Source: an uncultured Candidatus Saccharibacteria bacterium (GTDB taxonomy: Bacteria > Patescibacteriota > Saccharimonadia > Saccharimonadales > JAGQNK01). From it: 64,000 bases of DNA. The notes under the pieces are model-generated. The model was not told where the DNA came from. It did no database searches and saw only the letters and a list, made by a program, of their open reading frames with translations. Made by a program: the position numbers and the translations under genes. Positions 999 to 56,629 of this stretch are shown here, piece by piece; position 1 is the first letter of the stretch; the number at the start of each line of letters is the position of its first letter. The stretch lies in contig CAZWRG010000001.1 of NCBI GenBank assembly GCA_964636355.1, forward strand, positions 41,687-105,686. The letters are read 5' to 3'.

Positions 999-1013
999 TA
1001 TTCCTCATATAAT

Positions 1014-2961: not shown

Positions 2962-3013
2962 TTAACAGTCACTAGTCGATTGTCGCTAGTTATTAGGGAG
3001 ATGTTGTCTGTCA

Positions 3014-3047: not shown

Positions 3048-3057
3048 ATTTTTCATC

Positions 3058-5929: not shown

Positions 5930-5979
5930 AAACTATCCCTCTTTCGCTGTTTGGTCGCCCGGCACACGCTAGATCTCCC

Positions 5980-6956: not shown

Positions 6957-6959
6957 AAT

Positions 6960-7655
6960 TTACCTCGCCTCGCCTTCTGAATTGTCTTGCATGAATATAT
7001 CTTGGTCTGGTTTTTCCGTGCTCGACCTGGTTGTAACTGTCTTTGGAACCTCTAATTGTGGTTTCTGGGTGCTGGTAAATATCACCGGATCATAAGCTAG
7101 GGTAATTTGGTAAGTCGCTGGCCAGTCATTGTCTGCCTGGTCGCTCAAGCTGAAAGATGCCAACACCACCTGAGAAAAAGCATTGGCTGTCTGGTCGTCG
7201 GTTTTATATTTAGTGAACTTCAGAGTATCAACAAACTGGTTAACTGCTTTTAATGACTTGCCGGAACCATTGAAAGTCATGGTCCGAGCTTCAAAATCTA
7301 TATTGAGACTCGATACTGTGGTGTCTGTCGGTACTAATTGCGGCAAATAATCACCTAGTCGCTCGGCAGCCGGCTTATTTTCATGCAAGGAGTTAAGGCT
7401 TCCTAGCTGATTTTGAACTGTTAAGATTTTATTTATTTCTGGCTCGCTCTGAAGCTGCCTGCTCATACTGTCAATATCGGCCCGCAGGTTTTTCATATGG
7501 TTTTTTTGCAAAATATTAACCCCAACAAACAGAGCTATCATTATCACCAAAGATCCGCCGGCGATAATCGAAGCCGCCAGCATGACCAATCGCTTAGTGC
7601 GCCTAGCTTTGAGATATTCGATTTTTACATCTGGCAGCAGGTTAAACTGAATCAT
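6960..7655 (-). CDS. pilN: PilN-like T4P alignment protein
   Basis: 231 aa. N-terminus MIQFNLLPDVKIEYLKARR carries the characteristic NLLP motif, followed by a TM helix. GGAGG Shine-Dalgarno sequence upstream. Confidence 0.65.
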   Translation of the reverse strand: MIQFNLLPDVKIEYLKARRTKRLVMLAASIIAGGSLVIMIALFVGVNILQKNHMKNLRADIDSMSRQLQSEPEINKILTVQNQLGSLNSLHENKPAAERLGDYLPQLVPTDTTVSSLNIDFEARTMTFNGSGKSLKAVNQFVDTLKFTKYKTDDQTANAFSQVVLASFSLSDQADNDWPATYQITLAYDPVIFTSTQKPQLEVPKTVTTRSSTEKPDQDIFMQDNSEGEAR

Positions 7656-7768
7656 GAAACGCCTCCGGCATTACGAGCCAAAAGCGAAACGCATAAAGCA
7701 GCAAGTAGCGACCGAAAATCAGTCTTTGGCACTTTATGAACTTTGAACTTTGTGACTTTATAACTCAT

Positions 7769-8809
7769 CTATTCGATCCTCTCCGCTAGCCCGGCAGCTA
7801 CTCCAAACTGGTTAGAAACTGCCAATAGTTCATTTTGCTTATCAGCCGCGAAGCTGGTGTTTCGCCAGGCATTGCCAATCTCGACATTAACCCCAAATTT
7901 ATTAGCTAGATACAACGGGAATTCAGGCAATGACGAAGCGCCACCAGTTACAATAATTCTCTCTACCTTAGCGTCACCATAGCGAGCCTGGAAGAATTTT
8001 ATTGATTTCTCGGCCTCGCCAGCCAGCAGCTCGATAGTGTTAATAATTCCCTGGTAAATCTGGCCTTCCAGCTTTTCTTTATTCAGACCAAACTTAAACA
8101 CAAACTGTTCAGCTTGGTTTTGATCAATATTTAGATTCTGCATAGCCGCGCGAACAATTGTCTCCGATCCAGTCGGGATTGACCGTGTTAAACGCGGAGC
8201 ACCGTTCATGGCAATTACAAGATCAGTGGTCTTATAACCAATATCGAGAACCATTTGCGGCGCTGTGGCGTCTGGAGCCAACATTGCCCTGGTTAGTGCC
8301 AGATTATCCGGTTCAAAAGCAATTACATTGAGCCCAATTGACTCAAGCATATCCAGCCGTGACTCAATAAAATCATTAGGAACACTGGTCAGCAAAACTT
8401 CAACCTTGCCGCTGTCTTTTGGTGAATCACCAATAACTGCCCAGTCAATTTTAGAGGTTTCTGGCGGCGTCGGGATCAAAGAATCTGCCTGGTAATTGAT
8501 AGATTTGGTCATTTCATCCGGTGACAGCCTGTCAATATCAACTACAGTAGTAAAAACTCTTTGCGACGGCAGGCCAACCGCCACGTTTCGTGAAGTCACT
8601 CTAGCGTCAGCAATCAACCCAGCCACTGCTTGAGCTAGTTTTTGCTGGTCAGCTTTAGCATCGCTAAGAGCAATCTGCTGGTCAATCGGCGCATAAGCAT
8701 ACCTAGACAAAGCCTTAACCGGACCGCTGCCCTTAAGATCTACAAGCCTGATGGCTGTTGTGCCAATATCCAAACCAAAAAAATCAGAAACACCACTTAA
8801 TATGCTCAT
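7769..8809 (-). CDS. pilM: PilM (actin-like ATPase of the T4P inner-membrane complex)
   Basis: 346 aa. Actin/FtsA-like fold signature GLDIGTTAIRL at the N-terminus. Confidence 0.8.
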   Translation of the reverse strand: MSILSGVSDFFGLDIGTTAIRLVDLKGSGPVKALSRYAYAPIDQQIALSDAKADQQKLAQAVAGLIADARVTSRNVAVGLPSQRVFTTVVDIDRLSPDEMTKSINYQADSLIPTPPETSKIDWAVIGDSPKDSGKVEVLLTSVPNDFIESRLDMLESIGLNVIAFEPDNLALTRAMLAPDATAPQMVLDIGYKTTDLVIAMNGAPRLTRSIPTGSETIVRAAMQNLNIDQNQAEQFVFKFGLNKEKLEGQIYQGIINTIELLAGEAEKSIKFFQARYGDAKVERIIVTGGASSLPEFPLYLANKFGVNVEIGNAWRNTSFAADKQNELLAVSNQFGVAAGLAERIE

Positions 8810-8997
8810 ATTTTTTGGCTCCTGATTGATTTCTGTTTTAGCGTTGAGATTTGGTTCATATTGCCCACATTTTCTTACAGTTTTTGCTGCGCTAAGACCA
8901 TTTTTAGTTTGAATTTTGGCGCAACAATCCTATTTAACTTAAGTATACCATAAGCTTTTTGATTAAAAACAACTTTAATAACCCTGTGGAAATCTAA

Positions 8998-11259
8998 TTA
9001 TAGAACTGGCGGTAAAGTGCTGAACGAAGCCGCGCCACCCCGCCCGCCTGAACCAGACCTCAACCACAACTCAGGTGTATAGATAAATACCTCCGCCGGA
9101 TCACCGCCAGCTTGGTAATTTTCATTAGTCGTTGCATTGCCGACTGTACCAGGCGTCCTGGAGAACTTTATCTGATCAGCCACCACGGCTCCGTAAACCG
9201 TCAATTTGTTATTACACATACCATTCCTTAGCAAAGGACCATTTGGCGGAAGTGGCCGGTTTACATACCTACCACAAGTATAGAATCTTCCCGTTGGATC
9301 AGCCCTATCCTCATCTCTTATTGCAACGAATAGGCCACTTATCTCTGAAACTGAACCTCTAATATATATATTTCCCTTAACAATTAGCCTGAACTGAGGG
9401 ATCTGATCAATGTTGCTATACATGCCCCCGGCATAGGTTATATTGTCTTCGATTATTACATCCCCTTTTATATATTTAGTCTCAGTCTGACCCATACCTA
9501 AGTTTCTACCGAATAGCCGCTGACTTCCCTCGGGATTATTGGGAGCTGTTGACCAGTAGTTAGGTCCGCAAGATAGTGCTGCCTGCTCTAAATTACCACC
9601 GTACTCAACTGATTCTGGCAGATTGGCAAAGCTTAGTCCTTTAGGCACATTCCTAAACTGCGCCGAAGCAAATCCGGTTATCTCGCCGAGAGCAAAAACT
9701 GCTAATTGCGCCCCGGCTCCGGAGTAGCTCGAGCTACCGTTGCTGCGGCCCCTGATAAATGCACTTTCGTTGACACTACAAGCTCCGTCTGAACCAGTGG
9801 CCGACATCCCCGCCAAAACATCCCCGCCATAAACCTTATGATACGGGAGAGTAGAAATATCTACCTCTTCACCCTCAGCACACAACACAGATCTATTAGT
9901 GATGGTACCTCCAGAGCCAGGATTCCATATCCTTATCCTGTATCTTATATGATAACTATCCGAACTGTTTATAAGCAAATTCTCAAATACACTCTCTGTA
10001 CCCCAAGCTGGCGCTAAACTTCTTGCACTAGTCACTGGAAATCCTGGCAGTGGATTATTTCCTTGTGAGTCTGATGAAATATTCAATACGATGTCGTATC
10101 TTAAATCCCTGGCTCTCCCCTGTGTACCAAAATTCTCAAGGTTAAGTCTGGCAGTTAGGTTAAATTGCTCACCTGGCTCTGGAGTGCCGACGTCAATATC
10201 ATATCCGCCGCAAGCCACGTTAGCACAAGCTGGTAGTGTCACATTATCATGGTGAGTAGTACCTAAAATTAATACCCGATATCCTTCGTCATAAACTGTA
10301 AAGTACTTTCTAACATCAAACTCAAACACATATCCATGCCATCTTCCTGCAGGATTAGTAGATGGTAGGTTTGCCAGCATTCGCTCAACCTCTACATACT
10401 GCCCATTAGGATTCCGTCTTTGAAGGACAACATTTTTAGGACTTGGGTCTCCCATTATGCGTGCACCGCCACGAATGATTCCACTATCACAGGTTCCACC
10501 TGCACTGATAAATATGGAAGTGCCCACATTTATTCTTATAGTTCTATATATTGTATTTTCTGGGCAGTTCGTACCACTTAGACCATTTGATGCAATCGCA
10601 CCACCATCAACACACCTATAGATGCCTCCTTCATATCTATGAACCATTCTATATTTATAGGCAACCTGGATGGTATGAGTCTGACCTGGAGCAAGACCGG
10701 ATAACCCAGATAGTCTGAAGACCTGAAATGCTGGGCCGAACCCGCTCACGACATATCTTTGATTATAAAAATGTGAGGGTCCGTAATCCAAGGTTACGTC
10801 ATAAGGGAAAGGTGCTGTCGTAGTGCCCGCTACTGCTCCAATAGATACACCCGGGGTTGAAGCCGTAAGGCTAACTGTATTAGTCCTTGTCTCTTGAATC
10901 GATTTGTCTACTATATTACCGCTTGAATCTATATTGGAATTGCAGTGCCTTGAAAGTGAGTTGATCATAAGATCAACTGATTCCGTACCTGCCTCAACAT
11001 TTATTTCTTGAACCCAGTTAGCGCCTCTCTGCGACAGCCAAACATCTTGGCCATGTTTGTGAATAGGGCTACTATTATCGATTCGGCAGAGATTCGCATT
11101 TGGATCGCCTGGCCTAACAATAAAATCGGGAACAGTATCGGTATTTTCCTCAATAGCACTGGCTTGTGCAGGTAGACCAAATATGAACAAACCGGTCAAC
11201 AGCGCAGCCAGCACCAAGCATTTTGTTTTAGTTTGTGGGTTACTAATGCTCATAATCAA
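8998..11259 (-). CDS. Large secreted Cys-containing protein of unknown function at the head of the T4P operon; candidate pilus-associated adhesin.
   Basis: 753 aa. Cleavable signal peptide (...LPAQASA/IEE). Many Cys residues, Gly/Asn/Ser-rich, no TM segment. 4-nt overlap with the upstream 176-aa gene. No recognisable domain by eye. Confidence 0.6.
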   Translation of the reverse strand: MIMSISNPQTKTKCLVLAALLTGLFIFGLPAQASAIEENTDTVPDFIVRPGDPNANLCRIDNSSPIHKHGQDVWLSQRGANWVQEINVEAGTESVDLMINSLSRHCNSNIDSSGNIVDKSIQETRTNTVSLTASTPGVSIGAVAGTTTAPFPYDVTLDYGPSHFYNQRYVVSGFGPAFQVFRLSGLSGLAPGQTHTIQVAYKYRMVHRYEGGIYRCVDGGAIASNGLSGTNCPENTIYRTIRINVGTSIFISAGGTCDSGIIRGGARIMGDPSPKNVVLQRRNPNGQYVEVERMLANLPSTNPAGRWHGYVFEFDVRKYFTVYDEGYRVLILGTTHHDNVTLPACANVACGGYDIDVGTPEPGEQFNLTARLNLENFGTQGRARDLRYDIVLNISSDSQGNNPLPGFPVTSARSLAPAWGTESVFENLLINSSDSYHIRYRIRIWNPGSGGTITNRSVLCAEGEEVDISTLPYHKVYGGDVLAGMSATGSDGACSVNESAFIRGRSNGSSSYSGAGAQLAVFALGEITGFASAQFRNVPKGLSFANLPESVEYGGNLEQAALSCGPNYWSTAPNNPEGSQRLFGRNLGMGQTETKYIKGDVIIEDNITYAGGMYSNIDQIPQFRLIVKGNIYIRGSVSEISGLFVAIRDEDRADPTGRFYTCGRYVNRPLPPNGPLLRNGMCNNKLTVYGAVVADQIKFSRTPGTVGNATTNENYQAGGDPAEVFIYTPELWLRSGSGGRGGAASFSTLPPVL

Positions 11260-26092: not shown

Positions 26093-28516
26093 CTAGGCAA
26101 CATGCCAGCCATTAGCGCTGATTTTAGTAAGGACCGCTCGTTCATTTTGAGATATTGAGGCCGTGCCAACTGCTGTTGCGCCAGCACCAGCTTCAATACT
26201 AACTACCCCTGTGCCTAAGTTAATAACCGGGATTATAGCTCCCACCGGAATGGCGGCAGCGCTATTTTGGGGCAAACTAAGAGTCGAAGCCGAGCCATTA
26301 TTCATAGTAATTTGCTTACCTGCATCGCTTAACACCAATGTGTAGCTAGTGCCGGTCTGAGCATTTATGGCTGGTGCAATATTAGCCTGCAGAGTGCCCT
26401 CACCCTTGTTTATGGTAAGTTGAGCAGCACCGTTCCTAGAAAGATGAAGATCTTGCGCGCTAGTACCAGGACCTAGACTAATGGTTGTGCTTGGTAAACT
26501 AAATGCTAGTGTTGCAAGGGTATGGTTTACTACCGCAAAATTAGGGTTAGGACTGTTATCATAAACATTAAATCCTGGAGACCCTAGGAGTGAAGTAATT
26601 TCCACTTTTCCGGCTGCTTGTTGCCAGGTTTTAGTTGATGCCGAGAGGCTGGCTGTGACCTGAGAAATATCATAATCTGAACGACTGGTGTGGGCATAGG
26701 CTTGACCAATAGGGTCACCGCCGACCACCGCTGATACATGCCTGGATATCATGTGCCTTATGTATTCGCCAGGATGAACATTATCACTGCTATATACACC
26801 TTCAGGGTCGCCCATAGTACTATAATCACCAACCCCCAGAGAGCCATCAATAAGCCCTACGGACAGATTGGCGGCCAGCTGTCGCCCAACTTCTGCCTCT
26901 GCCCTGGTAAATACCTCATTTATGTAAGGAATCCATAGTGCTATATCGCACGAAGCTACAGACCTAATTGCATTAATTAGACCCGTGATCTTGGTTTCAT
27001 ATAAAGATGTGTCTGCTGCGGTTCCATCATTTGTCCCGGTAGATATAATCACTAAATCAGGCTGTAAGTTGTCAATTAGGTCTAAGCCAGCGAAAGAGTT
27101 ATTGGTAAAGTAATCACTGGCTGCTCCCGAACGAGAAACGTTAAAGACTCTAACTCCCCTGTTTTTGGTACTAGAATGAAAGTATACACCCTCAAGTATC
27201 ACGGTCTGTCCGCCAGTACAAATTGCCGTTAGATGAATATCATGATCGCTATAACTTAGCTCATCAGACGTCCAGATTTGTGAGGCTTTTTGAGCCCCGG
27301 AAGTGTCTATAGTGTGCAGTAAAGTGCCACCAGCACCACCGTCTCTAACTTCTATTAGACCACCAGTAGGCTGACTATTATAGATTATAGAAATAGCATC
27401 CGTTTTGGCCGTATGGGAAGCAATCTGACCGTTAGTCATTGATACCGAGTAGCCACCGATACCAGCCTGAACATCAGAGCCCTCACAAACATTTAACCTA
27501 CCAATGCCGGTTGCCGCTTTAGCATAGAGCATAAATCCAGCACTAGCTCTGGTCCCCCCAATGTAACTCAAGTCTTTAATAAGTCTGTTTGGCCAACAAG
27601 TGGTTCCGCCTAATGCTGATATTGAATCTCCAACTACTACGATGTTAACCGGAGAGGTTGGGGCATTGCTCAAAGCGGTAAACCAATTGTCTAAATTTTT
27701 CGGCCTAATATAGACACCTTCAGCTAATCCAGTGGCCTGGGTACTGCCAGAAACTGAGTTATCAACATATGCCTTGACAGCTTTTTGTGAAGGATATCGT
27801 TCGTCACTATTTGCCGTTAGGCTGCCGTCTGTATCCTTATTTGAAACATCTTCCTTAAGATCGAGGGCCTGCTCGGTAGCAGTTGAAAGTGGCTTATCGC
27901 TATCTGCTGTATTGTCGACATTCGATAAACCAACACTACTTTTATCAATTGAAACTGCGCCCGTCTGACCATTAACCGAAGCAACTGCGTTAACCTCTGC
28001 CCCATCTTGAATACCTTCTAGTTTGGATTTTTCAGCAGTTGTGAAGGACGCTGTAATATCATCAAGAACAGCCTGATTAGGATGACTATGTCTGGATGAA
28101 GTGTTAGCCGTGACGTCCGCATGACTTGACACCGCAGCGGCAAAATCAGTTATATCACTTGCTTGGTGATCATGGTTAGCGTCAGCTTTGTCAGCTAAGG
28201 CCGGGACTGTCGGGCTGGCAGCTGTTCCGCCAAGATCTCCAGTCAACTGAACTAGGCCAGGGGTTGTACCGTTAGCCAACGGAGCCCCTGAAGTAGCTAC
28301 CGAATCTACGTAAGCTTTATTTGCAGCATCAGTATTATCTACTGGGCTAGGAACTGTTACGCTACCAGTAAAAGTTGGATTGTTTAATGGAGCTAAGTTG
28401 CCTATTGTTCCAGATGTTTTTAGAGAGCCATCCTGATTATGTTCAACCGACAGGAATTCATTGAGCAAAGTACCCCATTTACCCTTGTCACCGCCTGGTT
28501 CTGGTAGTCTAGCCAT
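26093..28516 (-). CDS. Phage-tail-fibre-like repeat protein fused to an SGNH (GDSL) hydrolase domain, inserted between truB and rpsO
   Basis: 807 aa with no signal peptide. N-terminal half has tail-fibre-type repeats (LNNPTFTGSVTVPSP...AANKAYVD; DHQASDITDF; YPSQKAVKAYVDN). Central region has SGNH blocks GDSIS, GTNDG and DNVH. C-terminal ~200 aa are Gly/Ala/Ser-rich. Confidence 0.65.
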   Translation of the reverse strand: MARLPEPGGDKGKWGTLLNEFLSVEHNQDGSLKTSGTIGNLAPLNNPTFTGSVTVPSPVDNTDAANKAYVDSVATSGAPLANGTTPGLVQLTGDLGGTAASPTVPALADKADANHDHQASDITDFAAAVSSHADVTANTSSRHSHPNQAVLDDITASFTTAEKSKLEGIQDGAEVNAVASVNGQTGAVSIDKSSVGLSNVDNTADSDKPLSTATEQALDLKEDVSNKDTDGSLTANSDERYPSQKAVKAYVDNSVSGSTQATGLAEGVYIRPKNLDNWFTALSNAPTSPVNIVVVGDSISALGGTTCWPNRLIKDLSYIGGTRASAGFMLYAKAATGIGRLNVCEGSDVQAGIGGYSVSMTNGQIASHTAKTDAISIIYNSQPTGGLIEVRDGGAGGTLLHTIDTSGAQKASQIWTSDELSYSDHDIHLTAICTGGQTVILEGVYFHSSTKNRGVRVFNVSRSGAASDYFTNNSFAGLDLIDNLQPDLVIISTGTNDGTAADTSLYETKITGLINAIRSVASCDIALWIPYINEVFTRAEAEVGRQLAANLSVGLIDGSLGVGDYSTMGDPEGVYSSDNVHPGEYIRHMISRHVSAVVGGDPIGQAYAHTSRSDYDISQVTASLSASTKTWQQAAGKVEITSLLGSPGFNVYDNSPNPNFAVVNHTLATLAFSLPSTTISLGPGTSAQDLHLSRNGAAQLTINKGEGTLQANIAPAINAQTGTSYTLVLSDAGKQITMNNGSASTLSLPQNSAAAIPVGAIIPVINLGTGVVSIEAGAGATAVGTASISQNERAVLTKISANGWHVA

Positions 28517-46868: not shown

Positions 46869-47227
46869 TTTTTATCCTTTTGTTTGTTTTAATTATTGTT
46901 AATTATTTAACGGGTTTTAAATTTATATATATGACCTGTTTTGATGTAGTTTTGGCTGGCTTGGCTGTAAATCTCAAGCACTTTAATACTGGTCATAATC
47001 ATCACCTGAAAAACCAAAGCGACCATCAGTCCACGAGCCGAGCCGGTTGGCACAAGCTGACGTCCGTAGATCGATAACTTTATGTAGGTGTAGGCTTTTT
47101 TCATTTTGGTGTTTGTTTTATTCTTTAACGAATGCCTACATATTAACACGCTTGTGCTTTTTTGTCAATATTATTAAACTTATAGTCATTTCCGATCATC
47201 TTGAAGTTATGCTTAAATAAGACAGTT

Positions 47228-47818
47228 ATGGCCGACCAAAACCAATATGATTTCATTCTTAACCCGAATAACGGCAAATCAAAAAAAGATTTGTTTGCCT
47301 TTTTAAAGACAGGCAACAAGTTGGTTTTGACAATTTTTGTGGGAGTAATATTAATAATTGTGTTCGGGCTTTTGGCGCTAATATTAAACAGCGGCCCCTC
47401 GAACACAGAAAAATTATTATCAGTAGCTCAGCAACAACAGGAACTTATTCGGGTGGCCGACAGAGGCACCAAGGATGCCCGCGGCACCAGAGCCTTAAAT
47501 TTAGCCACCACTGTTAAATTAAATCTCAGCAGCGATCAAACTCCCCTAGTGGCGGCCCTTAAGGCAGAGGGAATGAAAGTTAATTCAGCGGAATTAAATG
47601 CCGGGAAAGACGCCTCCACTGATCAAAAACTAACCAATGCCCTGCAAAACAACCGTTTCGATGAGGTGTTCGTGGAGCATATTCAAGCTGAGCTGCTTGA
47701 TTATCAGACGGCCTTAAACGAGGCCTATAAAACGACTCGCAATCAAAAGCTCAAGGAAACCCTCAAAACCCAATACGACAACGCTACAATCCTAATCACC
47801 ACCGAAGTAAAAGAGTAA
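47228..47818 (+). CDS. Membrane-anchored hypothetical protein (single TM, helical Gln/Lys-rich ectodomain)
   Basis: Start taken at MADQNQYDF. TM segment LVLTIFVGVILIIVFGLLALIL. It converges on the CapA gene, with a 2-nt gap between stop codons. Confidence 0.45.
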   Translation: MADQNQYDFILNPNNGKSKKDLFAFLKTGNKLVLTIFVGVILIIVFGLLALILNSGPSNTEKLLSVAQQQQELIRVADRGTKDARGTRALNLATTVKLNLSSDQTPLVAALKAEGMKVNSAELNAGKDASTDQKLTNALQNNRFDEVFVEHIQAELLDYQTALNEAYKTTRNQKLKETLKTQYDNATILITTEVKE

Positions 47819-47820: not shown

Positions 47821-49035
47821 CTATTGCCCAAGCTGAGTCTTCATGGCTGGCCAGCCAACTCGCTGCTCAATTGACCGCTGAAGATCCGGACCAGCCCTTT
47901 GGGTGATCCGATGAGCGCCGCCCGAACTGCCGACCACATCGTAAGTTAGCTTGATGTCGTACTTGCTTAACCCGCGCTTATTGATTTCTTCCAGGCAATC
48001 GTCTTGCCGCTTAATGCACTGTTCGCCGACTTCCAACCACTGCGACATGTCATCGGAATACGGAACATTGATCGCAACGTCAACACTAAGTCCGCGCATG
48101 GTTTCGGCATCGATCTGATCAAAAATAAAGTTACCGGTTGAGTAAAAAATTGGCTTGCCTTTATAAACCTCGCCATTTTGGACCCAGTGCGGACTGTTGC
48201 CAATCACAAACTCGGCTCCGAGATCGATGATTTTACGAGCAATAAATTCCTGGTCAGGCGCCGCTTTGGCATAATACTCCGCCCCGGCGTGCATAAATCC
48301 AAAAACCGGCATAAACCTGGCATATTCTTCCATGACCTCAATTTCGCCAGGTTTAGGCTCTCTGAAGAAATAATGCCAAGCACAAAAAGCCAACGGCAGA
48401 CGAGCTTTTTGCTCAGACTGATCCGGATGGCTAACCAGAACCGGCAGCGCAATAATCTCACAAGCCTCGTCTTTTAGCGACGGATCATGATGGCCGTATG
48501 TTTGAATTCCGGCGGCTTCAAGGTTTTTTAGTGTCATATTAAAAGCCTCGGGACCCAGATCGTTGGAGTGATTATTGGCCAAACTGACAATGGTGAATAA
48601 CTTTGACACCTCTGGCAGCCACTTTACATGACAGTTAAAAATCAGATTGCTGACCTGTGTGGCGTAAGGGATCACGTCGTCGGTGCTTGGACACTCCCAA
48701 TCAAGCGTCATGGCGTCGTACTTTTCTGGCTTAAAAGTATCCATTTTGCTAAACGGCTGCTTCAGATCATTACCGGCGTCGCGCTCTACGGCCCTGGCCA
48801 ACACAGCTGTTCCATTAAATAAATACCGCCCGGTCAACCGATCAGGTTTTGGCGCCTCTGGCTCAGCCTGCCTTACTGATTGGTCTGCCGGAGCTTCTGC
48901 CCGACCATTAAAAATAAAGATGTAGCTCAAGACAGCTGCCGCAACCAATAAAGCCAGCGCCAGACCAATCAAAAAGCGGTTTTTAAGGCTTTTGCTCTGC
49001 TGTCTTTGCTTATACCTTTGCATCTTGATTATCAT
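47821..49035 (-). CDS. CapA/PgsA-family metallophosphatase-fold protein (copy 1)
   Basis: 404 aa. N-terminal TM anchor. Motifs CapA/PGA_cap-like, including ...NSPHWVQNGEVYKGKPIFYSTGNFIFDQ. Confidence 0.7.
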   Translation of the reverse strand: MIIKMQRYKQRQQSKSLKNRFLIGLALALLVAAAVLSYIFIFNGRAEAPADQSVRQAEPEAPKPDRLTGRYLFNGTAVLARAVERDAGNDLKQPFSKMDTFKPEKYDAMTLDWECPSTDDVIPYATQVSNLIFNCHVKWLPEVSKLFTIVSLANNHSNDLGPEAFNMTLKNLEAAGIQTYGHHDPSLKDEACEIIALPVLVSHPDQSEQKARLPLAFCAWHYFFREPKPGEIEVMEEYARFMPVFGFMHAGAEYYAKAAPDQEFIARKIIDLGAEFVIGNSPHWVQNGEVYKGKPIFYSTGNFIFDQIDAETMRGLSVDVAINVPYSDDMSQWLEVGEQCIKRQDDCLEEINKRGLSKYDIKLTYDVVGSSGGAHRITQRAGPDLQRSIEQRVGWPAMKTQLGQ

Positions 49036-49072
49036 TATAGCAACATCAATAAGCGCTATAATTAGTATTAAG

Positions 49073-49963
49073 GTGAAGAATTATCAAATCCGGCCGCATC
49101 GATCATCAAAAGTAAAAACTATCTGGCTTAAGGCGTCACTTGTAGTTTTGCCGCTACTGTTAGGGCTTGGCTTTTGGCTGTATAAAACAAATCAAAAGCC
49201 CGGACCAGAGCCTACAGTGCCTAGTGCGTCTGAGGTTGATAAATCTAAAGCCGAACCCGAGACACAGCCCAAAACCGAGGCATTAAATCTACAGCCAGTT
49301 GTAGATAAATGGATCTCTGCACAGCCGGCCACCTACGCTATTATGGTTTATGATCCAGCCGCCGGGGAAGCCATCGGTTCAAACCTGGAAACTAAAGAAT
49401 TTTTCGCGGCTAGTTTATATAAATTATTCGTAGCCTATTTGGCGCTAATTGATTTTCAATCCGGTGCCCAGAACCCTCACGATGTAATCGTGGCTGGTCA
49501 AACCCGCCAACAGTGTGTCGATAAAATGATTCGCAGCTCTGACAGTCCTTGTGGCGAAGCGATGATGGCGGCGATGAATCGGAGTACAATTGAGCAAAAA
49601 CTGGCAAATATGGGCATAACAAACACTGATTTTAATGACCTAATGACAACCGCCAAAGATGTGGCAGTTGTCTTTGAATACATTCATAAAAGACGGCACT
49701 TGAACCAGCCAAACACGGCGCTGCTCAGAGACGCTCTGCTCAACCAACCGCAAATGTATAAAAATGGCTTGGCTAAGGGAGCGCCACAAGCAAAAGTTTA
49801 CTCTAAAGTCGGCTGGAATGAGCAACATAATTATCATGACGCTGGCCTGATGGCCCTGCCAGACGGCCGCGAATTTGTGGTGGTGATTTTAAGTCAAGGT
49901 AATGGCCGCAGTGCGCCAATTGCTGACTTTTCGTCGACTATTTATTCGGCGCTTACACGTTAG
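49073..49963 (+). CDS. Class-A beta-lactamase-like serine hydrolase
   Basis: Motifs SxxK (SLYK), SDS (the SDN-equivalent) and KVG (the KTG-equivalent). The start is placed at an in-frame GTG preceded by AAGGTG. The ORF track's ATG at 48992 would overlap the divergent CapA start by 44 nt. N-terminal signal anchor. Confidence 0.55.
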   Translation: MKNYQIRPHRSSKVKTIWLKASLVVLPLLLGLGFWLYKTNQKPGPEPTVPSASEVDKSKAEPETQPKTEALNLQPVVDKWISAQPATYAIMVYDPAAGEAIGSNLETKEFFAASLYKLFVAYLALIDFQSGAQNPHDVIVAGQTRQQCVDKMIRSSDSPCGEAMMAAMNRSTIEQKLANMGITNTDFNDLMTTAKDVAVVFEYIHKRRHLNQPNTALLRDALLNQPQMYKNGLAKGAPQAKVYSKVGWNEQHNYHDAGLMALPDGREFVVVILSQGNGRSAPIADFSSTIYSALTR

Positions 49964-50396
49964 GTGTATGATCGTCGGCGCCTTCGGTCACTAGAGTGTA
50001 ACTATGGCGAATCAGGCCCTGGATCTCCTCCCAATCCAGCTGGCCACTCAAAATAATCGTATTCCAATGTTTTTTGTTCAAGTGGTAACCTTCCATAACT
50101 TCGGTATATTTGTCCCTGAGCAATTTCGCCAGCTGGGGATCACATTTTAAGCTAATTCGCACTGGACTTTTGCCTTCAGCAATCAGAGCAAACATCTTAT
50201 CTTGAACTTTATAAACCGCCACGTCTTCGCCAAACGGATAATCCAGTTTGGCGCCAGGCATACTCAAAATATATTCTTCAACAGTTTCATGATCCATTAA
50301 ATTTATTATACAACACACTTTTTTCTGGATTATTATGAAGATTAAGTATATAATGCGAATCAATTGGAGAGTTAAGTCAAGACTGGGAGGTCTCAT
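49953..50396 (-). CDS. MmcQ/YjbR-family protein
   Basis: 147 aa. ...YILSMPGAKLDYPFGEDVAVYKV..KMFALI is typical of the YjbR family. Confidence 0.6.
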   Translation of the reverse strand: MRPPSLDLTLQLIRIIYLIFIIIQKKVCCIINLMDHETVEEYILSMPGAKLDYPFGEDVAVYKVQDKMFALIAEGKSPVRISLKCDPQLAKLLRDKYTEVMEGYHLNKKHWNTIILSGQLDWEEIQGLIRHSYTLVTEGADDHTPNV

Positions 50397-52203
50397 GCGT
50401 TACCATATTTATGGCCAACAACGTTCTACCAAAATAACAAATAAACTATTGTCTGTGCTTGCAGTGGCGTCGTTATTATTTAGCAGTGCCAGCTCCTTAC
50501 CACTGCTTTTTACTCAACGAGCCTTAGCTGTCACTAATACAGAAACTGTTTATCAAAATGATTTTGCTAATTCTTGGACTACTTGGACTTATCATGATGA
50601 TCGTAAAGATAGTACCGACCCGCTCAATGCAGCCACTCCTGCTCCAAACACCAATCACCAAATCGCTGCCAATCCAAATCCGGCTCCTGGCAATAATGGC
50701 GCCGTCAAATTAACTGCCTCAGGCGGACAAAAATTTAATCTAGCCAGCCTGCAATACTCTGGCACCAAGCTAAAAGACATCACTTCATTAGGATTTGATG
50801 TTTATACCGACAATCCTGGACAGGCCTACATTAATTTAGACATCAACTTCAATTCCTGGCAGCATGGACCAGGCACCGTAGACCACCAACGTTTAGTTTA
50901 TGTACCTCAAGGAGTTATAGCTAATCAGTGGAGCAGCCACGAAGCCACCACTCAAGGACTTTGGAGCTGGTCTGGTGGAGACACCTGGCCAGATGGCGTC
51001 GAAGGCCCTAGGACTTGGAGTAGTATTGTTGACGCATTTCCAAATGCCTATATATCACGAACATTAGCCGAAATAGTTTTTATCAAAAAGCCCTTCGGAA
51101 GCCTATATCTTAGAGCTGATGGAGACAGTCCAGTAACTGCCTATTTTGACAATATCTACCTAACTACGGCTACCCAAAACACAAAATATAATTTTGAGCT
51201 GTCGCCAGCTCCAGCAGGCTTAGGCTTTGTAGATGGCGCGCAAACTTGCGGTGGCGTAACAAGCACTAATTTTGCTCAACCTAAATGGGACTCGGTGTCT
51301 GGTGCCGTATCTTATGACTATCAGGCATTTTTGAATGGCAATCTGGTATTTGCTGCCAACTATAGCTCAACCCACCCTGGAGGAACCTTCGGCGGTGGCC
51401 AAAATGGCGAATGGTCATTTAGAGTTCGAGCCGTTAATGCTGATGGAACCGTAACAGCTTGGTCAGAGCCATGTGCCATTAACTTGGACACCTCTGCACC
51501 TACTTGGGACAGCAACCCAGTTCATGAGAGCCCTCTAAATGGTGCTTCAGTAACTGAAGGTAGCAACATTTTGATGCAATGGACTGATGCCAGCGATCCA
51601 AACGGCGTCAACTACTACTACGAGGTGTCGTATTCTAACCAAACTAATGGTCCTGGCGGTAGTTTCGTTAACCCAATCTGGACATTCGGTCCCCTAACCT
51701 CATCTGAGCATGACGGAACTGGAACAGTGGCTGGAAATTACTTCTGGCACGTTAAAGCCTGTGACGACTTAGGTAATTGTACACCTTGGACAGATCCATG
51801 GGGCGGTTCTGTGGTCGCTGAACAAATTAATCAACCAAACAGCCCGGCAACTGGTGGCGGTAATACGCTAGGAGCAACCACTGGTGGTAATACTCTGGTT
51901 GTAACCTCTGGGCGATCAGGTGCCGTTCAAGGAATCGGCGGAAATAATCAAGGATTCAACCAAACAAACAATCTTGGTGATGGTGATAACCAAGATCAAG
52001 AAGATGATGCCGGTGAAGTTGAAGGCGCCAACGTTGAAAATGACTTTGCCTCTATACCTGCCACCTTGGCAGCAGCTGACATCAATGAGCAAAGTGGCTG
52101 TACTAAAATCTTTGGTCTGTGCTGGTACTACTGGCCACCAATCATCGTGGCGGTACTAACCCTTGGTTACATTATTTACCGAAAAACCCAGACAGAAAAT
52201 TAG
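50395..52203 (+). CDS. Secreted surface protein with a C-terminal TM anchor; shares a ~105-aa Cys-containing C-terminal domain with the next gene
   Basis: Start taken at MRYHIY..., which has a GGGAGG ribosome-binding site. Signal peptide. Repeat/FN3-like modules. Shared domain signature W..SDP.GV.YYY.VS...NP..W.FGP....GT..G.Y.W.VKACD.L.NCTPWT.P. Gly-rich plus acidic stalk. Terminal TM segment with RK after it. Confidence 0.6.
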   Translation: MRYHIYGQQRSTKITNKLLSVLAVASLLFSSASSLPLLFTQRALAVTNTETVYQNDFANSWTTWTYHDDRKDSTDPLNAATPAPNTNHQIAANPNPAPGNNGAVKLTASGGQKFNLASLQYSGTKLKDITSLGFDVYTDNPGQAYINLDINFNSWQHGPGTVDHQRLVYVPQGVIANQWSSHEATTQGLWSWSGGDTWPDGVEGPRTWSSIVDAFPNAYISRTLAEIVFIKKPFGSLYLRADGDSPVTAYFDNIYLTTATQNTKYNFELSPAPAGLGFVDGAQTCGGVTSTNFAQPKWDSVSGAVSYDYQAFLNGNLVFAANYSSTHPGGTFGGGQNGEWSFRVRAVNADGTVTAWSEPCAINLDTSAPTWDSNPVHESPLNGASVTEGSNILMQWTDASDPNGVNYYYEVSYSNQTNGPGGSFVNPIWTFGPLTSSEHDGTGTVAGNYFWHVKACDDLGNCTPWTDPWGGSVVAEQINQPNSPATGGGNTLGATTGGNTLVVTSGRSGAVQGIGGNNQGFNQTNNLGDGDNQDQEDDAGEVEGANVENDFASIPATLAAADINEQSGCTKIFGLCWYYWPPIIVAVLTLGYIIYRKTQTEN

Positions 52204-52221
52204 AAAAGCAACTTAGAATAT

Positions 52222-52256
52222 AAAGGGCCCTAGATCAGGGCTCTTTATATTTTTTC
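52222..52256 (+). terminator. Rho-independent terminator
   Basis: AAAGGGCCCT AGATC AGGGCTCTTT ATATTTTTT. Confidence 0.6.
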
Positions 52257-52324
52257 AAAAAAACTACTTGTTCATATAAACATTTTACTTTAGAATATAA
52301 ATATAACTAATGTGGGAGGCGAAT

Positions 52325-53200
52325 ATGAATTCGTTAGGTGTGTTTCGTGATATCAAAAATAATTTTAGGCTGATACTTGGTCTAGTCATAGGACTAGCGG
52401 CAATTGGGCTGGTGGGCACTTCTCTGTCCACGGCAATTGCTGATGAATCCCCATCTGACAGCCAAAATATAATAATAAATGAGATTAAGCCCGGGACCGG
52501 CGGATCAGAAAAATGGATTGAACTTTACAACCCGACTGGCGATTCAATTAATATCAAGGGTTGGCGATTTGTCCGAGGCAACACAACCCTAAGTCCAGTT
52601 ATTAGCAGCAGCGCTGATTTGATTTTAAACCCCGGCGATTTCTACCTGTACAGTGTTAGCGGCTCCCTGCCAATTGATGGCGGCGCCAATCCTCAAGTTA
52701 AGCTACTAGACGGGCCATCTGGAAACATTATTGATTCAGTTGACTACGGAGTCAGCCTAGATGGTCAAAGCTATGCCCGATTTTTGAATAATTCCTGGCA
52801 AATAACAGATACGCCTACTCCCGGCAGCGCTAATGTCTTGAGTGATCAAACAGCACCAATTTGGAACCAAGAAAACGTTCATTTATGGCCAGAAAACGAT
52901 GCCGTGATCAGCGAAGATAGCGAAATTATCATGCAGTGGAGCGCTGCATCCGACCCCAGTGGTGTCGAGTATTACTATCTGGTGTCTGGTGTCTCCGGCG
53001 AAACCTCAGGAGATGACAACCGGTTAACTAATCCAATTCCATGGCTATTTGGTCCCTTCAACGAACCAAACCACAACGCCACTGGCACTTGGCCCGGTAC
53101 TTACTACTGGCAAGTCAAAGCTTGCGACAACTTAGACAACTGCACTCCATGGACTGAGCCATCCAAGGGCACGGTTGAGGCAGCTGAGTTACCTATTTGA
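52325..53200 (+). CDS. Secreted lamin-tail-domain (LTD) protein paralogous to the preceding gene
   Basis: Start at MNSLGVF, which has a GGGAGG ribosome-binding site 6 nt upstream. Signal peptide. LTD motifs IIINEIKPG...WIELYNPTGDSINIKGWRF. C-terminal domain homologous to that of the 50395..52203 gene. Confidence 0.6.
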   Translation: MNSLGVFRDIKNNFRLILGLVIGLAAIGLVGTSLSTAIADESPSDSQNIIINEIKPGTGGSEKWIELYNPTGDSINIKGWRFVRGNTTLSPVISSSADLILNPGDFYLYSVSGSLPIDGGANPQVKLLDGPSGNIIDSVDYGVSLDGQSYARFLNNSWQITDTPTPGSANVLSDQTAPIWNQENVHLWPENDAVISEDSEIIMQWSAASDPSGVEYYYLVSGVSGETSGDDNRLTNPIPWLFGPFNEPNHNATGTWPGTYYWQVKACDNLDNCTPWTEPSKGTVEAAELPI

Positions 53201-53758
53201 GATTTTAGGCATAACTTCCAGATAATGTTGCAGCTCGGCAATTGAAGCCTGGATGTCGTCAAAGGCCCGATGCACCTCTTGTTTTTCGAACACTTCACCG
53301 TGTTTGCCCTGCATCAGAATTTTAAAACTACTGACGTCCAGCATTCGGTAGTGCAGCTTGAGGTCCAGAAGCGGCATCCACTGCTTAATAAATAGCCGGT
53401 CATTGTGAATTGAGTTGCCCGCTAAAATGGCCGGCTCATCACCAAAATGCTTTTCGATAAGTCCAATCATTTCAGATTCGACCTGTTTTAGGGACTTGCC
53501 TTCTTCCAGCCGGTTAATAAAATCGTCACGATTAGCTGGATATTCGCGCCACCAAATATTTTTTTTAATTCTATCAAGCACAACCTCTCGTTTTTGCTTG
53601 ATTCTGGCTTCATAACTGGCTAAGGTTTTGAAGTCGAAATCTGTTATTTCGGCCGCTATTTCCAGCAAAACATCCTTGGCTGGCTCTAGGCCAGTCATCT
53701 CGAGATCAACCCAAAGCAGCCTAGTCGGTATTTGGTTTTTATTCTTCATGTGATTCAT
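53189..53758 (-). CDS. orn: Oligoribonuclease (DEDDh 3'-5' exonuclease)
   Basis: LLWVDLEMTGLEP (Exo I motif) and H-x4-D (Exo III motif). About 180 aa. Confidence 0.8.
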   Translation of the reverse strand: MNHMKNKNQIPTRLLWVDLEMTGLEPAKDVLLEIAAEITDFDFKTLASYEARIKQKREVVLDRIKKNIWWREYPANRDDFINRLEEGKSLKQVESEMIGLIEKHFGDEPAILAGNSIHNDRLFIKQWMPLLDLKLHYRMLDVSSFKILMQGKHGEVFEKQEVHRAFDDIQASIAELQHYLEVMPKISNR

Positions 53759-54552
53759 TATACCGATAAAATCAGATTTGCGATTATTTCTGGGGCTTCT
53801 AGGGGTATTTGATGACCAGTTGGCAGCACTTTAAGACTGCAGTAGTTATTGTGGGTACATACGAGCTCCAAATTTTCTTTGGCGTGGGCCGAGGTTAGGT
53901 CTTTTTGGCCAATAACTATAACCGTAGGGATTTTTAAGGATTTAAGATCCTGTGTAACCTCATCTATAAAATACTTGTTTTTAAGTAGCTTTTTATAGAC
54001 AAAATAACGGTGCTTAGTGGCATCCTTTACAACTTCTTTGGGATATTTTTTGTACAACCTAACTGCCAATTTGGTTGGGAAAAGGCCGGAAATGCCCATC
54101 AACTTGACGATTATATTGGCCCGTCTTTTGCCCGTTAGTCTGTTTTTCTTAAGAGCGATTGACGCAACCTGCTGCTTGAACCTCAAATCATCAAATAACA
54201 CCGGCGCCGATAAAACAACGGAATGGAACTTCTTAGGATTCTTAAGCGCCCACTTTATTGCGATCATCGCACCCAGTGAGTGCCCAACCAAGACTGGAGG
54301 CTCACTAAATTTATAGTCTTTGAAGGTCTCTTCCAAACAATCAATAAAATGCTCCATTTTGTAACTTATATTTCTCGGCTTAGGAGATTTACCGTGACCT
54401 AGAAGATCCGGCAATATAAGTTCTCTGTCCTCACCGATCAAACTAACCACCGAAGTCCAATAATCGCTGGAAGACATCATGCCGTGGAGCAATATAACCG
54501 GTCGACCTTTGCCGAATTTTTTAACGTTTAACTTATAAGTTGTTTTATTCAT
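53758..54552 (-). CDS. Alpha/beta-fold hydrolase
   Basis: HGMMSS (oxyanion hole) and nucleophile elbow GHSLGA. C-terminal His. Confidence 0.7.
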   Translation of the reverse strand: MNKTTYKLNVKKFGKGRPVILLHGMMSSSDYWTSVVSLIGEDRELILPDLLGHGKSPKPRNISYKMEHFIDCLEETFKDYKFSEPPVLVGHSLGAMIAIKWALKNPKKFHSVVLSAPVLFDDLRFKQQVASIALKKNRLTGKRRANIIVKLMGISGLFPTKLAVRLYKKYPKEVVKDATKHRYFVYKKLLKNKYFIDEVTQDLKSLKIPTVIVIGQKDLTSAHAKENLELVCTHNNYCSLKVLPTGHQIPLEAPEIIANLILSV

Positions 54553-54574
54553 TAGTTAAATTATAGACCAACAG

Positions 54575-55372
54575 ATGATGAACATATATGCCATTAGGTA
54601 TAATGTGGTTATGAAAAAGAAAATACTCTTAGCTGTTTTGGGGGCCTTGGTGGCCTTATCCACCGTTGGCTATTTAACCTATACGAAATCAGAAAATCAG
54701 ACGCCTCAAAATAACACGCAATTAAATCCACAGAAAGATTCGGAAGATATAGAGCTACAAAAATCAACAAAAGATTTTAACAAAACGAGATTTTCCATCA
54801 CTGACCCGGACAGTATTTGGGTGGTGGTTAATAAGAACCGGCCGTTGCCTGACGGATACGAGCCAAGTGATTTGATTGTGCCATCAGTAAGACTTAGGTT
54901 GGATTCAACAAACCAGCAAATGAAATTTCGCCGCGCGGCTTCTGGGGCACTACAAGAAATGTTCACAGCTGCCGATAGGGCTGGCGTGACTTTGGTTTTT
55001 GGCAGCGGCTACCGCTCAGCGGCTCTGCAAAAACAATTTTATGACAATTATGTAGCCCAAGATGGTCAGGCAGCAGCTGATCGTTACAGCGCCCGGCCGG
55101 GAACGTCGGAGCATCAAACTGGATTATCCTTTGACGCTACCAATATACGTGGCGAGTGTCATTTAGAAACCTGTTTTAAGAACACTCCAGAGGGTAAATG
55201 GTTAGCTCAAAATGCTTATAAATACGGTTTTATTATTCGCTATCCGGACGGCAAAGAGGCAGTTACCGGCTATCAGTACGAGCCCTGGCACATGCGTTAT
55301 GTTGGCAAAGAGCTGGCCGCTGAAATGAGCAGACAAAATATTGTTACATTAGAAGAATTTTTCGATCTATAA
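54575..55372 (+). CDS. VanY-type D-alanyl-D-alanine carboxypeptidase (peptidase M15B)
   Basis: SGYRS, SEHQTG..D and EPWHMRY correspond to the zinc-binding H-x6-D ... H motifs of VanY/M15. Signal anchor. The likely true start is MKKKILL. Confidence 0.75.
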   Translation: MMNIYAIRYNVVMKKKILLAVLGALVALSTVGYLTYTKSENQTPQNNTQLNPQKDSEDIELQKSTKDFNKTRFSITDPDSIWVVVNKNRPLPDGYEPSDLIVPSVRLRLDSTNQQMKFRRAASGALQEMFTAADRAGVTLVFGSGYRSAALQKQFYDNYVAQDGQAAADRYSARPGTSEHQTGLSFDATNIRGECHLETCFKNTPEGKWLAQNAYKYGFIIRYPDGKEAVTGYQYEPWHMRYVGKELAAEMSRQNIVTLEEFFDL

Positions 55373-55393
55373 ACCTATAACCCCATTTCGGTA

Positions 55394-55422
55394 AGCTTCC
55401 TGAGGTCAGACCTCAGGAAGCT
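55394..55422. terminator. Perfect 14-bp palindromic hairpin between convergent genes
   Basis: AGCTTCCTGAGGTC A GACCTCAGGAAGCT. It overlaps the stop codon of the CapA gene. There is no clear U-tract. Confidence 0.5.
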
Positions 55423-56629
55423 AATATTCGGGGGATTCGATAATTTTAACTGTCGTAAACTTATTGAGCACATTGTTAATTTGTTCAACTTGAGCCGAAG
55501 CAGAAGTTTCGTGCAATGAACTGGCTAATTGTTCACTGGCTTGATCCAGGGCGTACATTTTAACGTTTTGGCGTGCAAGTAGTCGCTCAGCTCGCTTGTC
55601 GTCCGGCGACCAATCGTAATGATTATAAATTGGCAAAGCTGATAGCTCAGTTATTTTTTTGGTTTTAATATCGATATCCATAACCCCGATAACACCGGTC
55701 AAGGCCTCGATCTCCAGCTGGGTGTTCAAAAAATTGCCAATACTGTACCAGACAATCGTTTCACCACCACTGGCTGCCTTAAGCCGTTTTACGGGTTGCA
55801 GAACATGCGGGCCATGACCAACGATTATATCGGCTCCATTATCTGCTAAAAACTGACTTATTTGAGTCTGGCGAGTGTTAATTTCTGGTGAGTACTCTGT
55901 TCCCCAGCGCATACTCACCAAAATAATATCGGCCTCATCCCGAGCCGTTTTAAGTTGGCGCTCAGCCAACTGCTGATTGTACATAGTCACCCCATAGCCA
56001 TTGGCCACCGGACTGTTTGAATAAGTAGAATATGATAAAAACGCAAACTTTAATCCGTTATTTTCGAAATACTTAACCGAGTCGCGTTCAGCGGCCGAAC
56101 GATTAGCTCCGGCGTGAGCCAAGACATCCTGACGCTCCCATTCAGCCACCATAGCATCTATTAGCGACTGACCTTTGTCATAGGTATGATTAGTGCCGGT
56201 ATTGATCACGTTGCAGCCCAGCCGAACCATATCACGAGTCAGCTCCAGCGGCGCATTAAAAACCGGATAACCGCTAACTCCAAACTGCCTACCGCCGGCT
56301 GGCGTAGCCTGATTGCAAAACCGCACATCGGCTTTATCAAAGTACGGCTTCATATTGGCCATTAAGCTGAGGTAATTATATGAATTTCCGGCCTGAGCGT
56401 TCTGATTAACTGAATCATGAGCAATCACATCACCGCTCAGAATTAGCCGCAGGCTGGTCTTTGGCTCATCAGGGCTATTGTCTGCGGCGGTCTGATTAGC
56501 ATTTATGTCTGAACTGGGTGATGTTTGCTGGCCGAATCTCCAGGCCAAAATAACTGCCCCGCTAATTACCAAAATTAAACCAAAAACTATGAGTATTTTG
56601 GCTCGACGAGACTTAATCCCGCGCTTCAT
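55421..56629 (-). CDS. CapA/PgsA-family metallophosphatase-fold protein (copy 2)
   Basis: 402 aa. N-terminal TM anchor. ...SGDVIAHDS..., ...GHGPHVLQ... and ...SIGNFLN... motifs of the PGA_cap family. Confidence 0.7.
   Translation of the reverse strand: MKRGIKSRRAKILIVFGLILVISGAVILAWRFGQQTSPSSDINANQTAADNSPDEPKTSLRLILSGDVIAHDSVNQNAQAGNSYNYLSLMANMKPYFDKADVRFCNQATPAGGRQFGVSGYPVFNAPLELTRDMVRLGCNVINTGTNHTYDKGQSLIDAMVAEWERQDVLAHAGANRSAAERDSVKYFENNGLKFAFLSYSTYSNSPVANGYGVTMYNQQLAERQLKTARDEADIILVSMRWGTEYSPEINTRQTQISQFLADNGADIIVGHGPHVLQPVKRLKAASGGETIVWYSIGNFLNTQLEIEALTGVIGVMDIDIKTKKITELSALPIYNHYDWSPDDKRAERLLARQNVKMYALDQASEQLASSLHETSASAQVEQINNVLNKFTTVKIIESPEY

Follow-up and report, generated by a model that had tools for sequence, protein, structure and literature searches.

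According to our analysis, the locus at positions 47821-56629 of the window (the whole 64,000-nucleotide stretch from an uncultured Candidatus Saccharibacteria bacterium analyzed here) is probably a stretch of ordinary Saccharibacteria (Patescibacteria) chromosome and not a functional module. The gap between yjbR and orn is closed in some genomes and filled by a modular surface-protein gene in others, with two such genes, P4 and P5, present here. An earlier note on this DNA had instead proposed an undescribed, CapA-linked envelope module containing a novel domain shared by P4 and P5. What we found is a domain predicted to be of the common fibronectin type III (FN3) or Ig-like kind, which is widespread and is not linked to CapA, the very outcome that the earlier note had said would refute its proposal: a CapA gene lies near only 1 of 24 loci encoding its cysteine-pair variant, the slot is empty beside CapA genes in several genomes, and surface genes occur without CapA in others.

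The gene calls of the earlier note (two CapA genes, a class-A-like hydrolase, VanY, an alpha/beta hydrolase, and two secreted proteins) were all recovered where it had placed them, by the list of open reading frames (ORFs) and by Pfam and NCBIfam scans, whereas the yjbR and oligoribonuclease genes lying inside the locus had been omitted from it. The order and strands are capA1(-), bla(+), yjbR(-), P4(+), P5(+), orn(-), abh(-), vanY(+), and capA2(-), i.e., six strand switches over nine genes, giving seven co-directional blocks. Since the strand changes six times, the nine genes cannot be a single operon, and the components of the proposed module are not co-directional. The outermost genes, capA1 (47821-49035, - strand) and capA2 (55421-56629, - strand), encode PGA_cap family proteins with one N-terminal transmembrane segment each. 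Between them lie the genes for a bla-like serine hydrolase (48992-49963, + strand; Pfam Beta-lactamase2), for the cytoplasmic YjbR (49953-50396, - strand, the real gene probably being 49953-50297; Pfam YjbR, 1.5e-29), for the modular surface protein P4 (ORF 50335-52203, + strand, the gene probably being 50395-52203), for P5 (52310-53200, + strand), for the cytoplasmic oligoribonuclease Orn (53189-53758, - strand; NCBIfam, 144 bits versus a cutoff of 106), for an alpha/beta-fold hydrolase (53758-54552, - strand; Pfam Abhydrolase_1, 2e-26), and for a carboxypeptidase of the VanY/LdcB family (M15B) (54575-55372, + strand).

Compared with their homologues, the listed ORFs of P4, yjbR, and the bla-like gene are too long at the 5' end (by 50335-50394, 50298-50396, and 48992 to about 49110, respectively), and the apparent overlaps of capA1 with bla and of yjbR with P4 are probably artifacts of start choice. 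Hydropathy analysis detected a lone N-terminal hydrophobic segment in CapA1, CapA2, the bla-like protein, VanY, and P5, and no export signal in YjbR (its 5' extension discounted), Orn, or the alpha/beta hydrolase. Most of the products would be membrane-anchored or secreted, which makes "cell-envelope genes" a fair, if loose, label.

Linkage to CapA was approached from both sides, through the genomic contexts of P4 homologues and through a metagenome scan with CapA1. Window genes were compared with the loci by tblastn and phmmer, CapA being called from first-round phmmer and tblastn only; second-round CapA profile matches to bla ORFs in loci L031 and L032 were disregarded, as the profile had been contaminated by a spurious bla ORF match. 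Among the 24 genome loci encoding the cysteine-pair FN3 variant, a CapA gene within 10 kb was found only in L021. The window shares the core arrangement yjbR(-)/surface gene(+)/orn(-) with L001, L004, L021, L031, and L032, on a backbone that reads rpoD-dnaG-...-orf205-[capA1-bla]-yjbR|orn-[vanY-capA2]-mscL-argS. yjbR stands beside the slot in all syntenic loci (66-83% identity) and forms the left anchor of this variable slot, orn forming the right one. The accessory genes around the core are patchy. L032 carries capA1 together with bla and capA2, just bla and the hydrolase are found in L031, and in L001 and L004 VanY is the only one. The divergent pair capA1|bla recurs in the window, L032, L033 (1-4822), and L040, and the convergent pair vanY|capA2 in the window, L033, and L039.

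In L001, L004, and L031 the slot holds a surface gene and no CapA gene is present, and further P4 homologues follow a ribosomal-protein operon (L002 and L029) or lie elsewhere (L030), again with no CapA gene near. L033, in turn, shows the order capA2-vanY-orn-yjbR-bla-capA1-orf205-dnaG-rpoD, which is that of the window without the surface gene and without the hydrolase, orn and yjbR overlapping by 11 nucleotides (nt); in L034, L035, L036, and L042 a capA1-like gene is located beside orn, orn abuts yjbR, and there is no surface gene. In this site comparison, CapA and a surface gene occur together in the window, L032, and L021, the capA1-like gene of L021 being on the other side of orn. Since the site can have CapA without a surface gene and a surface gene without CapA, the slot that holds the surface genes is a variable one. 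The components are not gained or lost together across the compared genomes, and the shared domain is not linked to CapA. The CapA genes are part of the backbone of a subclade, and the "bracket" results from the position of the slot. The window scans revealed no direct repeats flanking the P4-P5 insertion, no tRNA, and no Rfam family, and we therefore propose no mobile-element mechanism.

The Cys-containing domain that the earlier note had seen in both P4 and P5 was borne out by pairwise alignment, with 51% identity over about 118 amino acids (aa) (BLASTP E value, 6e-35) and the motifs MQW..ASDP.GV.YYY and VKACD.L.NCTPWT. Its position had been given as C-terminal, which is correct for P5 (52835-53197 of 52310-53200), whereas the P4 copy (51481-51834, + strand, delimited by alignment with P5 and by profile) is internal, at residues ~383-500 of the 622-residue ORF. 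An AlphaFold2 model built from a 45-sequence alignment (predicted local distance difference test [pLDDT], 96.5; predicted template modeling score [pTM], 0.87) is all-beta with eight strands, and of the top 50 Foldseek matches in PDB nearly all are sandwich domains of the FN3, PKD, or Ig type (template modeling score [TM], 0.4-0.6). When the profile of the family, A2, was compared with PDB sequences, full-length FN3 matches were obtained to EphB2 (2.3e-7), to the FnIII domain of the insulin receptor (about 1e-6), and to the FN3 domain of Bacillus chitinase A1 (1K85; 6.4e-7, residues 3-86 of 88). Model, Foldseek, and profile agree that the shared domain is an FN3-type (FN3/Ig-like) beta-sandwich and not a novel domain. 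Among 45 family members scanned with Pfam, 20 matched Ig_Rha78A_N, 13 matched Big_13, and 3 matched fn3, and the copies in larger relatives matched Big_13, Ig_Rha78A_N, fn3, or the N-terminal part of DUF4962; in database protein P0020, the stretches that best match the profile (1368-1457) and Big_13 (1370-1458) coincide.

The spread of the domain was assessed by searching a two-copy profile against 1.84 billion representative proteins, which returned 1,207 proteins at E<=1e-3, of which 305 reached E<=1e-10; many of the carriers are of giant size, and the domain is repeated in tandem up to 28 times. A word-index search with the shared domain alone found nothing. Comparison of individual domain copies showed that those of P4 and P5 are 50% identical and that the P4 copy is closest to those of P0005 and P0017 (64% and 63%). 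The P4 and P5 copies are 61-64% identical to copies from other genomes versus 50% to each other, which led us to reject a recent tandem duplication of the domain.

The conservation of the cysteines was checked in 477 aligned domain copies, taken from the best 150 proteins of the shared-domain search: 63 copies have both Cys residues, 414 have neither, and 0 have one, and both are invariant in the close subfamily of the domain. Copies lacking the pair mostly have Val or Ile at the first position and differ at the second, within a stretch reading ...RA[VI]D..GN.S.W...; in the cysteine-pair FN3, two residues of this stretch, which extends from strand F through the F-G loop into the beginning of strand G, are exchanged for the Cys pair. 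The model places the first Cys at the end of strand F and the other six residues on, in the F-G loop, from which we infer that the pair (ACD...NC) probably forms a disulfide that closes the F-G loop and stabilizes the domain outside the cell. A motif scan covering one genome per species located the variant in 24 genome loci, belonging to Saccharibacteria, to Andersen-, Levy-, Roizman-, Shapiro-, Woese-, and Dojkabacteria, to several Chloroflexota, and to one Rhodothermales genome.

Several observations weigh against our reading of the locus and of its shared domain. The combination of capA1, capA2, and a surface gene recurs in one other genome (L032), and in L021 a capA1-like gene is next to orn beside the surface gene, so that the CapA/surface-gene neighborhood is not unique to the window. 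The conserved capA1|bla and vanY|capA2 pairs could reflect a real wall-related function of these four genes, and the CapA-anchored loci, having been found via CapA, give no unbiased co-occurrence rate. As for the fold, the Foldseek E values are modest, about 1e-3 (TM, 0.5-0.6), and the window domain reaches no Pfam threshold, the P5 copy alone matching no family at E<=0.01; since the window copy passes no Pfam model, its assignment to FN3 rests on profile and structure.

P4 is 100% identical to database protein P0001, of 602 aa and beginning MRY..., and its start is most likely at 50395, because both P0001 and the homologues begin in this way. It consists of a signal peptide, an N-terminal domain of ~220 aa (N-domain), a first FN3 domain, the cysteine-pair FN3, a stalk, and a transmembrane anchor, with hydrophobic segments by hydropathy at residues 21-39 and 572-590. 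The stalk, which is rich in G, N, D, and E, and the C-terminal transmembrane helix agree in composition and hydropathy with the Gly-rich, acidic stalk and C-terminal anchor described in the earlier note. All 18 homologues that we identified are modular, being assembled from a signal peptide, the ~220-aa domain, at least one FN3 or Big domain, a low-complexity stalk, and a C-terminal anchor; 1 of the 18 is labeled Candidatus Saccharibacteria at NCBI, and several are encoded on contigs syntenic with the window. The cysteine-pair FN3 is usual among them and absent from several, e.g., P0006, P0007, P0008, P0014, and P0018. A genome scan with full-length P4 found no relatives.

The N-domain (50542-51201, + strand; DFANSWTTWTYHDD ... 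YFDNIYLTT) corresponds to residues ~50-269 of 602. A profile search found it in P0032 and, with P0017 as the sole exception, in the homologues (17 of 18), with 40-71% identity; in the homologues it reads DFANS.. ... YYDNVYLAT, and a weak second copy is seen in three of them. Pfam gives no match to the N-domain, and its profile retrieved nothing significant among PDB sequences, CBM41-type matches appearing only at E values of 0.1-0.2, which we do not interpret. We deem it a putative ligand-binding head. The first FN3-like domain (51283-51501, + strand) is a distant member of the shared-domain family (profile A2, independent E value of 5e-6), with a weak, sub-threshold match to Pfam ChitinaseA_N. 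It has a different Cys pair, one residue near strand A (QTCGG) and the other in the last strand (EPCAI), which was also recognized by eye in P0007, P0008, and P0014.

The C-terminal part of P4 (51829-52200, + strand, by composition and hydropathy) comprises the stalk, the GCTKIFGLCWYYW motif, the transmembrane helix, and a short basic tail. The anchor motif can be written G-C-[ST]-K-x2-G-x-C-W-Y-[YW]-W, followed by the transmembrane helix and the basic tail (window positions 52096-52200). In its Cys-containing form it is also C-terminal in P0002, P0005, P0006, P0013, and P0017, while P0007, P0008, P0011, P0012, P0015, and P0016 have it without the two Cys residues (FGL.WYWW....WW.IAAKRRK) and a few anchors are more divergent. 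A scan of the window and of the loci compared with it at this stage found the motif in the surface-protein ORF of seven loci (the window, L001, L004, L008, L030, L031, and L032) and in no other ORF. The P4-type anchor resembles a three-part sorting signal. In the mechanism that we propose, P4 would be exported through its signal peptide and then held in the membrane by its C-terminal transmembrane helix, the stalk rich in Gly, Asn, and acidic residues would span the wall, and the two FN3 domains would act as rigid spacers presenting the ~220-aa head outward.

Fourteen nt past the P4 stop, an inverted repeat search found a terminator-like hairpin, I4 (52217-52251, not assigned to a strand), with a 15-nt repeat that is 93% complementary and a 5-nt loop. 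Its flanks are T-rich, and the terminator scan places the site on the - strand. I4 looks like a bidirectional terminator, which suggests that P4 and P5 are transcribed separately; the promoter and terminator scans of 47-57 kb did not rise above shuffled controls.

It is conceivable, although we consider it unlikely, that the yjbR-orn gap is a hot spot where Saccharibacteria exchange C-terminally anchored adhesins. The conserved cassette would then consist of the cysteine-pair FN3, the low-complexity stalk, and the GC[ST]K..G.CWY[YW]W transmembrane anchor, and the variable heads would be the ~220-aa N-domain, LTD (the lamin-tail domain), Big_3/Big_7, and others. If this were true, the slot could help to set which host bacterium the epibiont attaches to, and the anchor motif could be an undescribed sorting signal.

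Both CapA proteins match PGA_cap (PF09587) well above the Pfam cutoff of 27, with 121 bits (7e-35) for CapA1 and 191 bits (3e-56) for CapA2. The earlier note had called them duplicates, but pairwise alignment gives only 21% identity (E value, 2e-9), and they are ancient paralogues and not a duplication. The transmembrane segment of CapA1 is at residues 23-41. Orthologues at the same site are 64% (L032) and 70% (L033) identical to CapA1, and orthologues of CapA2 are 63% (L032), 55% (L033), and 47% (L039) identical to it. The sole relative of CapA1 with a solved structure that we found is the peptide epimerase MslH (E value, 8e-10), a relation indicating that the PGA_cap family is not confined to capsule synthesis; MslH shows nothing more than that. 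In the low-identity pairwise alignment, SGDVIAHD of CapA2 is matched with NGTAVLAR of CapA1. In CapA1, the first calcineurin-fold motif may lack its Asp, which in MslH is the residue that pairs with His295; CapA1 keeps the ANNH..D and PH motifs.

The bla-like protein matches Pfam Beta-lactamase2 (77 bits, 2e-21, versus a cutoff of 22) and shows an SxxK motif (SLYK) in its translation, and it fails the NCBIfam model bla_class_A (31 bits versus a cutoff of 200). Its homologues are 264-293 aa long, and its true start is probably downstream of the listed TTG. By these scores it is best described as a class-A-like serine hydrolase, not a bona fide class A beta-lactamase. The VanY protein matches Pfam VanY (150 bits, 4e-44, versus a cutoff of 25), falls below the specific NCBIfam LdcB model (146 bits versus a cutoff of 275), and is N-terminally anchored according to hydropathy; vanY is also found in L001, L004, L033, and L039. 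The alpha/beta hydrolase, with neither a signal peptide nor a hydrophobic segment, occurs among the syntenic loci only in L031 and is a patchy accessory gene. We were not able to find the ligase CapB/PgsB or CapC in the 40 window ORFs that were scanned, which do not include about 17 shorter ones, or among the annotated genes of the syntenic loci. Most simply, the capA genes, the bla-like gene, and VanY are independent wall or peptide enzymes, which would be separately transcribed and membrane-anchored and whose presence varies between genomes independently of that of the surface genes.

A different view of these four genes, to which we give a low probability, is that capA1, bla, vanY, and capA2 form a dispersed set for the processing of wall peptides, in which the VanY/LdcB carboxypeptidase, a penicillin-binding-like serine hydrolase, and two calcineurin-fold CapA enzymes would have peptidoglycan stem peptides or a gamma-glutamyl polymer as substrates and P4 and P5 as clients or partners. 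The four products are N-terminally anchored and would face outward, their genes recur in the pairs capA1|bla and vanY|capA2, L039 even having capA2-vanY-capA1 contiguous (1-3563), and MslH acts on a peptide C terminus (PMC10406935). Yet the genes are divergent or convergent and not co-directional, each is independently absent from some of the syntenic genomes, and neither CapB nor CapC turned up in the scanned parts of the window. General synteny is, moreover, high (rpoD-dnaG, mscL-argS), so adjacency carries little functional signal, and the set exists without a surface gene in L033, from which it follows that P4 and P5 are not required partners.

P5 is composed of an N-terminal signal or anchor segment (hydrophobic residues 21-39), a lamin-tail domain (52451-52750), and the cysteine-pair FN3, with neither stalk nor C-terminal anchor, and at its 3' end it shares 12 nt with the end of orn. 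The LTD match (PF00932; residues 48-147) reaches 53.2 bits against a gathering threshold of 34.3 (E value, 4e-14), in agreement with the earlier note's assignment of this domain to one of the two proteins; the implication of its title, that both carry it, does not hold, as the Pfam scan gave no LTD match in P4. P5 matches both ends of P0011, with 34% identity over signal and LTD and 61% over FN3, while the middle, the stalk, and the anchor of P0011 are missing. Among 5.8 billion protein clusters, no full-length orthologue of P5 other than itself was found. A single-sequence AlphaFold model of P5 was unusable (pLDDT, 37). On the reading that we prefer, P5 would be a short relative of P4, i.e., a small protein, secreted or N-terminally anchored, with LTD and one FN3.

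The match to the two ends of P0011 only, the absence of a full-length orthologue in that search, and the end of the frame straight after FN3, inside the end of orn, would also be expected if P5 were what is left, by decay or truncation, of a longer P0011-type gene (LTD ... FN3-stalk-transmembrane helix) after loss of the middle and of the 3' anchor, with little or no function. We find this improbable, as the frame is intact over 296 codons and the signal segment, the LTD (profile positions 2-108 of 109), and the FN3, with all its conserved residues, are each complete. Least credible is a two-part adhesin in which secreted P5 docks on membrane-anchored P4 via FN3 pairing and adds a lamin-tail binding head: the two genes are neighbors and run in the same direction, LTD and the shared FN3 are the only domains of P5, and LTD is fused to a P4-type protein in P0011 and P0018, so that elsewhere the domains act within one polypeptide, but a P5-like partner gene was found in no other genome searched, each of the other syntenic slots contains one gene, the FN3 copies of P4 and P5 are not mutually closest, FN3 domains are usually spacers, and the N-terminal hydrophobic segment of P5 could itself serve as an anchor.

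The rest of the window is ordinary Saccharibacteria chromosome, encoding YchF, FtsJ, EF-P, FtsK, RNase J, UDG, PNPase, TruB, HolA, Fpg, PolA, a P-type ATPase, RpoD, and DnaG. A type IV pilus cluster (171-11259, - strand) encodes a prepilin peptidase, a PilC-like T2SSF protein, two T2SSE ATPases, and PilM, together with ORFs of 244 aa and 231 aa (6222-7655) and of 753 aa (8998-11259) without a Pfam match. An 807-aa protein (26093-28516, - strand) has only a weak, sub-threshold match to a GDSL-like lipase, in its middle. Adjacent to capA1, orf205 (47201-47818, + strand) encodes a single-pass membrane protein of 205 aa with no family match, which is found at the same position, with 29-54% identity, in all syntenic loci that reach far enough.

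With the candidate envelope module removed and the bracket of CapA paralogues read as backbone synteny, what remains of value is a Saccharibacteria surface-protein family with an uncharacterized N-terminal head and a distinctive C-terminal anchor, and a chromosomal slot whose occupant differs between related genomes. The cysteine-pair FN3 subfamily is, in addition, missed by current Pfam models at the single-sequence level. P4 and P5 are reasonable, not exceptional, candidates for binding studies.

Compared with known FN3 and bacterial Ig-like repeats (PF00041; PF19077, Big_13; PF25788, Ig_Rha78A_N), the shared domain has the same size (~100-120 aa) and the predicted beta-sandwich, the conserved Trp of strand B, the Tyr of strand C, and Y.W.V.A.D..GN.S.W in strands F and G, and it likewise occurs as a single or tandem spacer in secreted proteins. 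The window copies differ in an insertion of ~20 residues after strand C and in the ACD...NC Cys pair, which replaces V/I and S/T of the F-G stretch. With bacterial LTD (PF00932) proteins, P5 shares a domain that it matches nearly end to end and that the N termini of P0011 and P0018 match as well, whereas its short LTD-plus-FN3 architecture has no full-length counterpart in the database searched.

capA1 and capA2 resemble the CapA component of the Bacillus CapBCA(E)/PgsBCA(E) systems in belonging to the PGA_cap family and in having a single N-terminal transmembrane segment; unlike that system, they are 21% identical to each other, lie 6.4 kb apart in separate transcription units, and have no CapB or CapC that the scans could find. 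MslH is a calcineurin-fold peptide epimerase of the PGA_cap family (PDB 8GQ9; PMC10406935), with which the ANNH..DLG and G.xPH stretches of CapA1 align. The match is, however, local (~45 residues; E value, 8e-10) and reaches 45 bits versus an NCBIfam cutoff of 700, there is no lasso-peptide cluster at the window locus, and CapA1 has Thr where CapA2 has the Asp of GD in the pairwise alignment.

A search of the literature on LTD, CapA, or FN3 surface proteins in Saccharibacteria yielded nothing specific to them. The closest parallel that we can draw is with Southlakia epibionticum, a saccharibacterium in which envelope proteins with FN3, VCBS, and dockerin domains are essential for epibiotic growth, with glycans of the host cell as their proposed ligands (Wang et al. 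2023, PMC10633639), surface adhesins being thought to underlie host attachment in these epibionts (PMC10633639). P4 and P5 are likened to these proteins as secreted or anchored modular proteins with FN3 from the same phylum, although the head of P4 has no recognized glycan-binding family. We infer that P4 and P5 are surface-exposed and, by this analogy, that they plausibly serve in attachment to a host cell.

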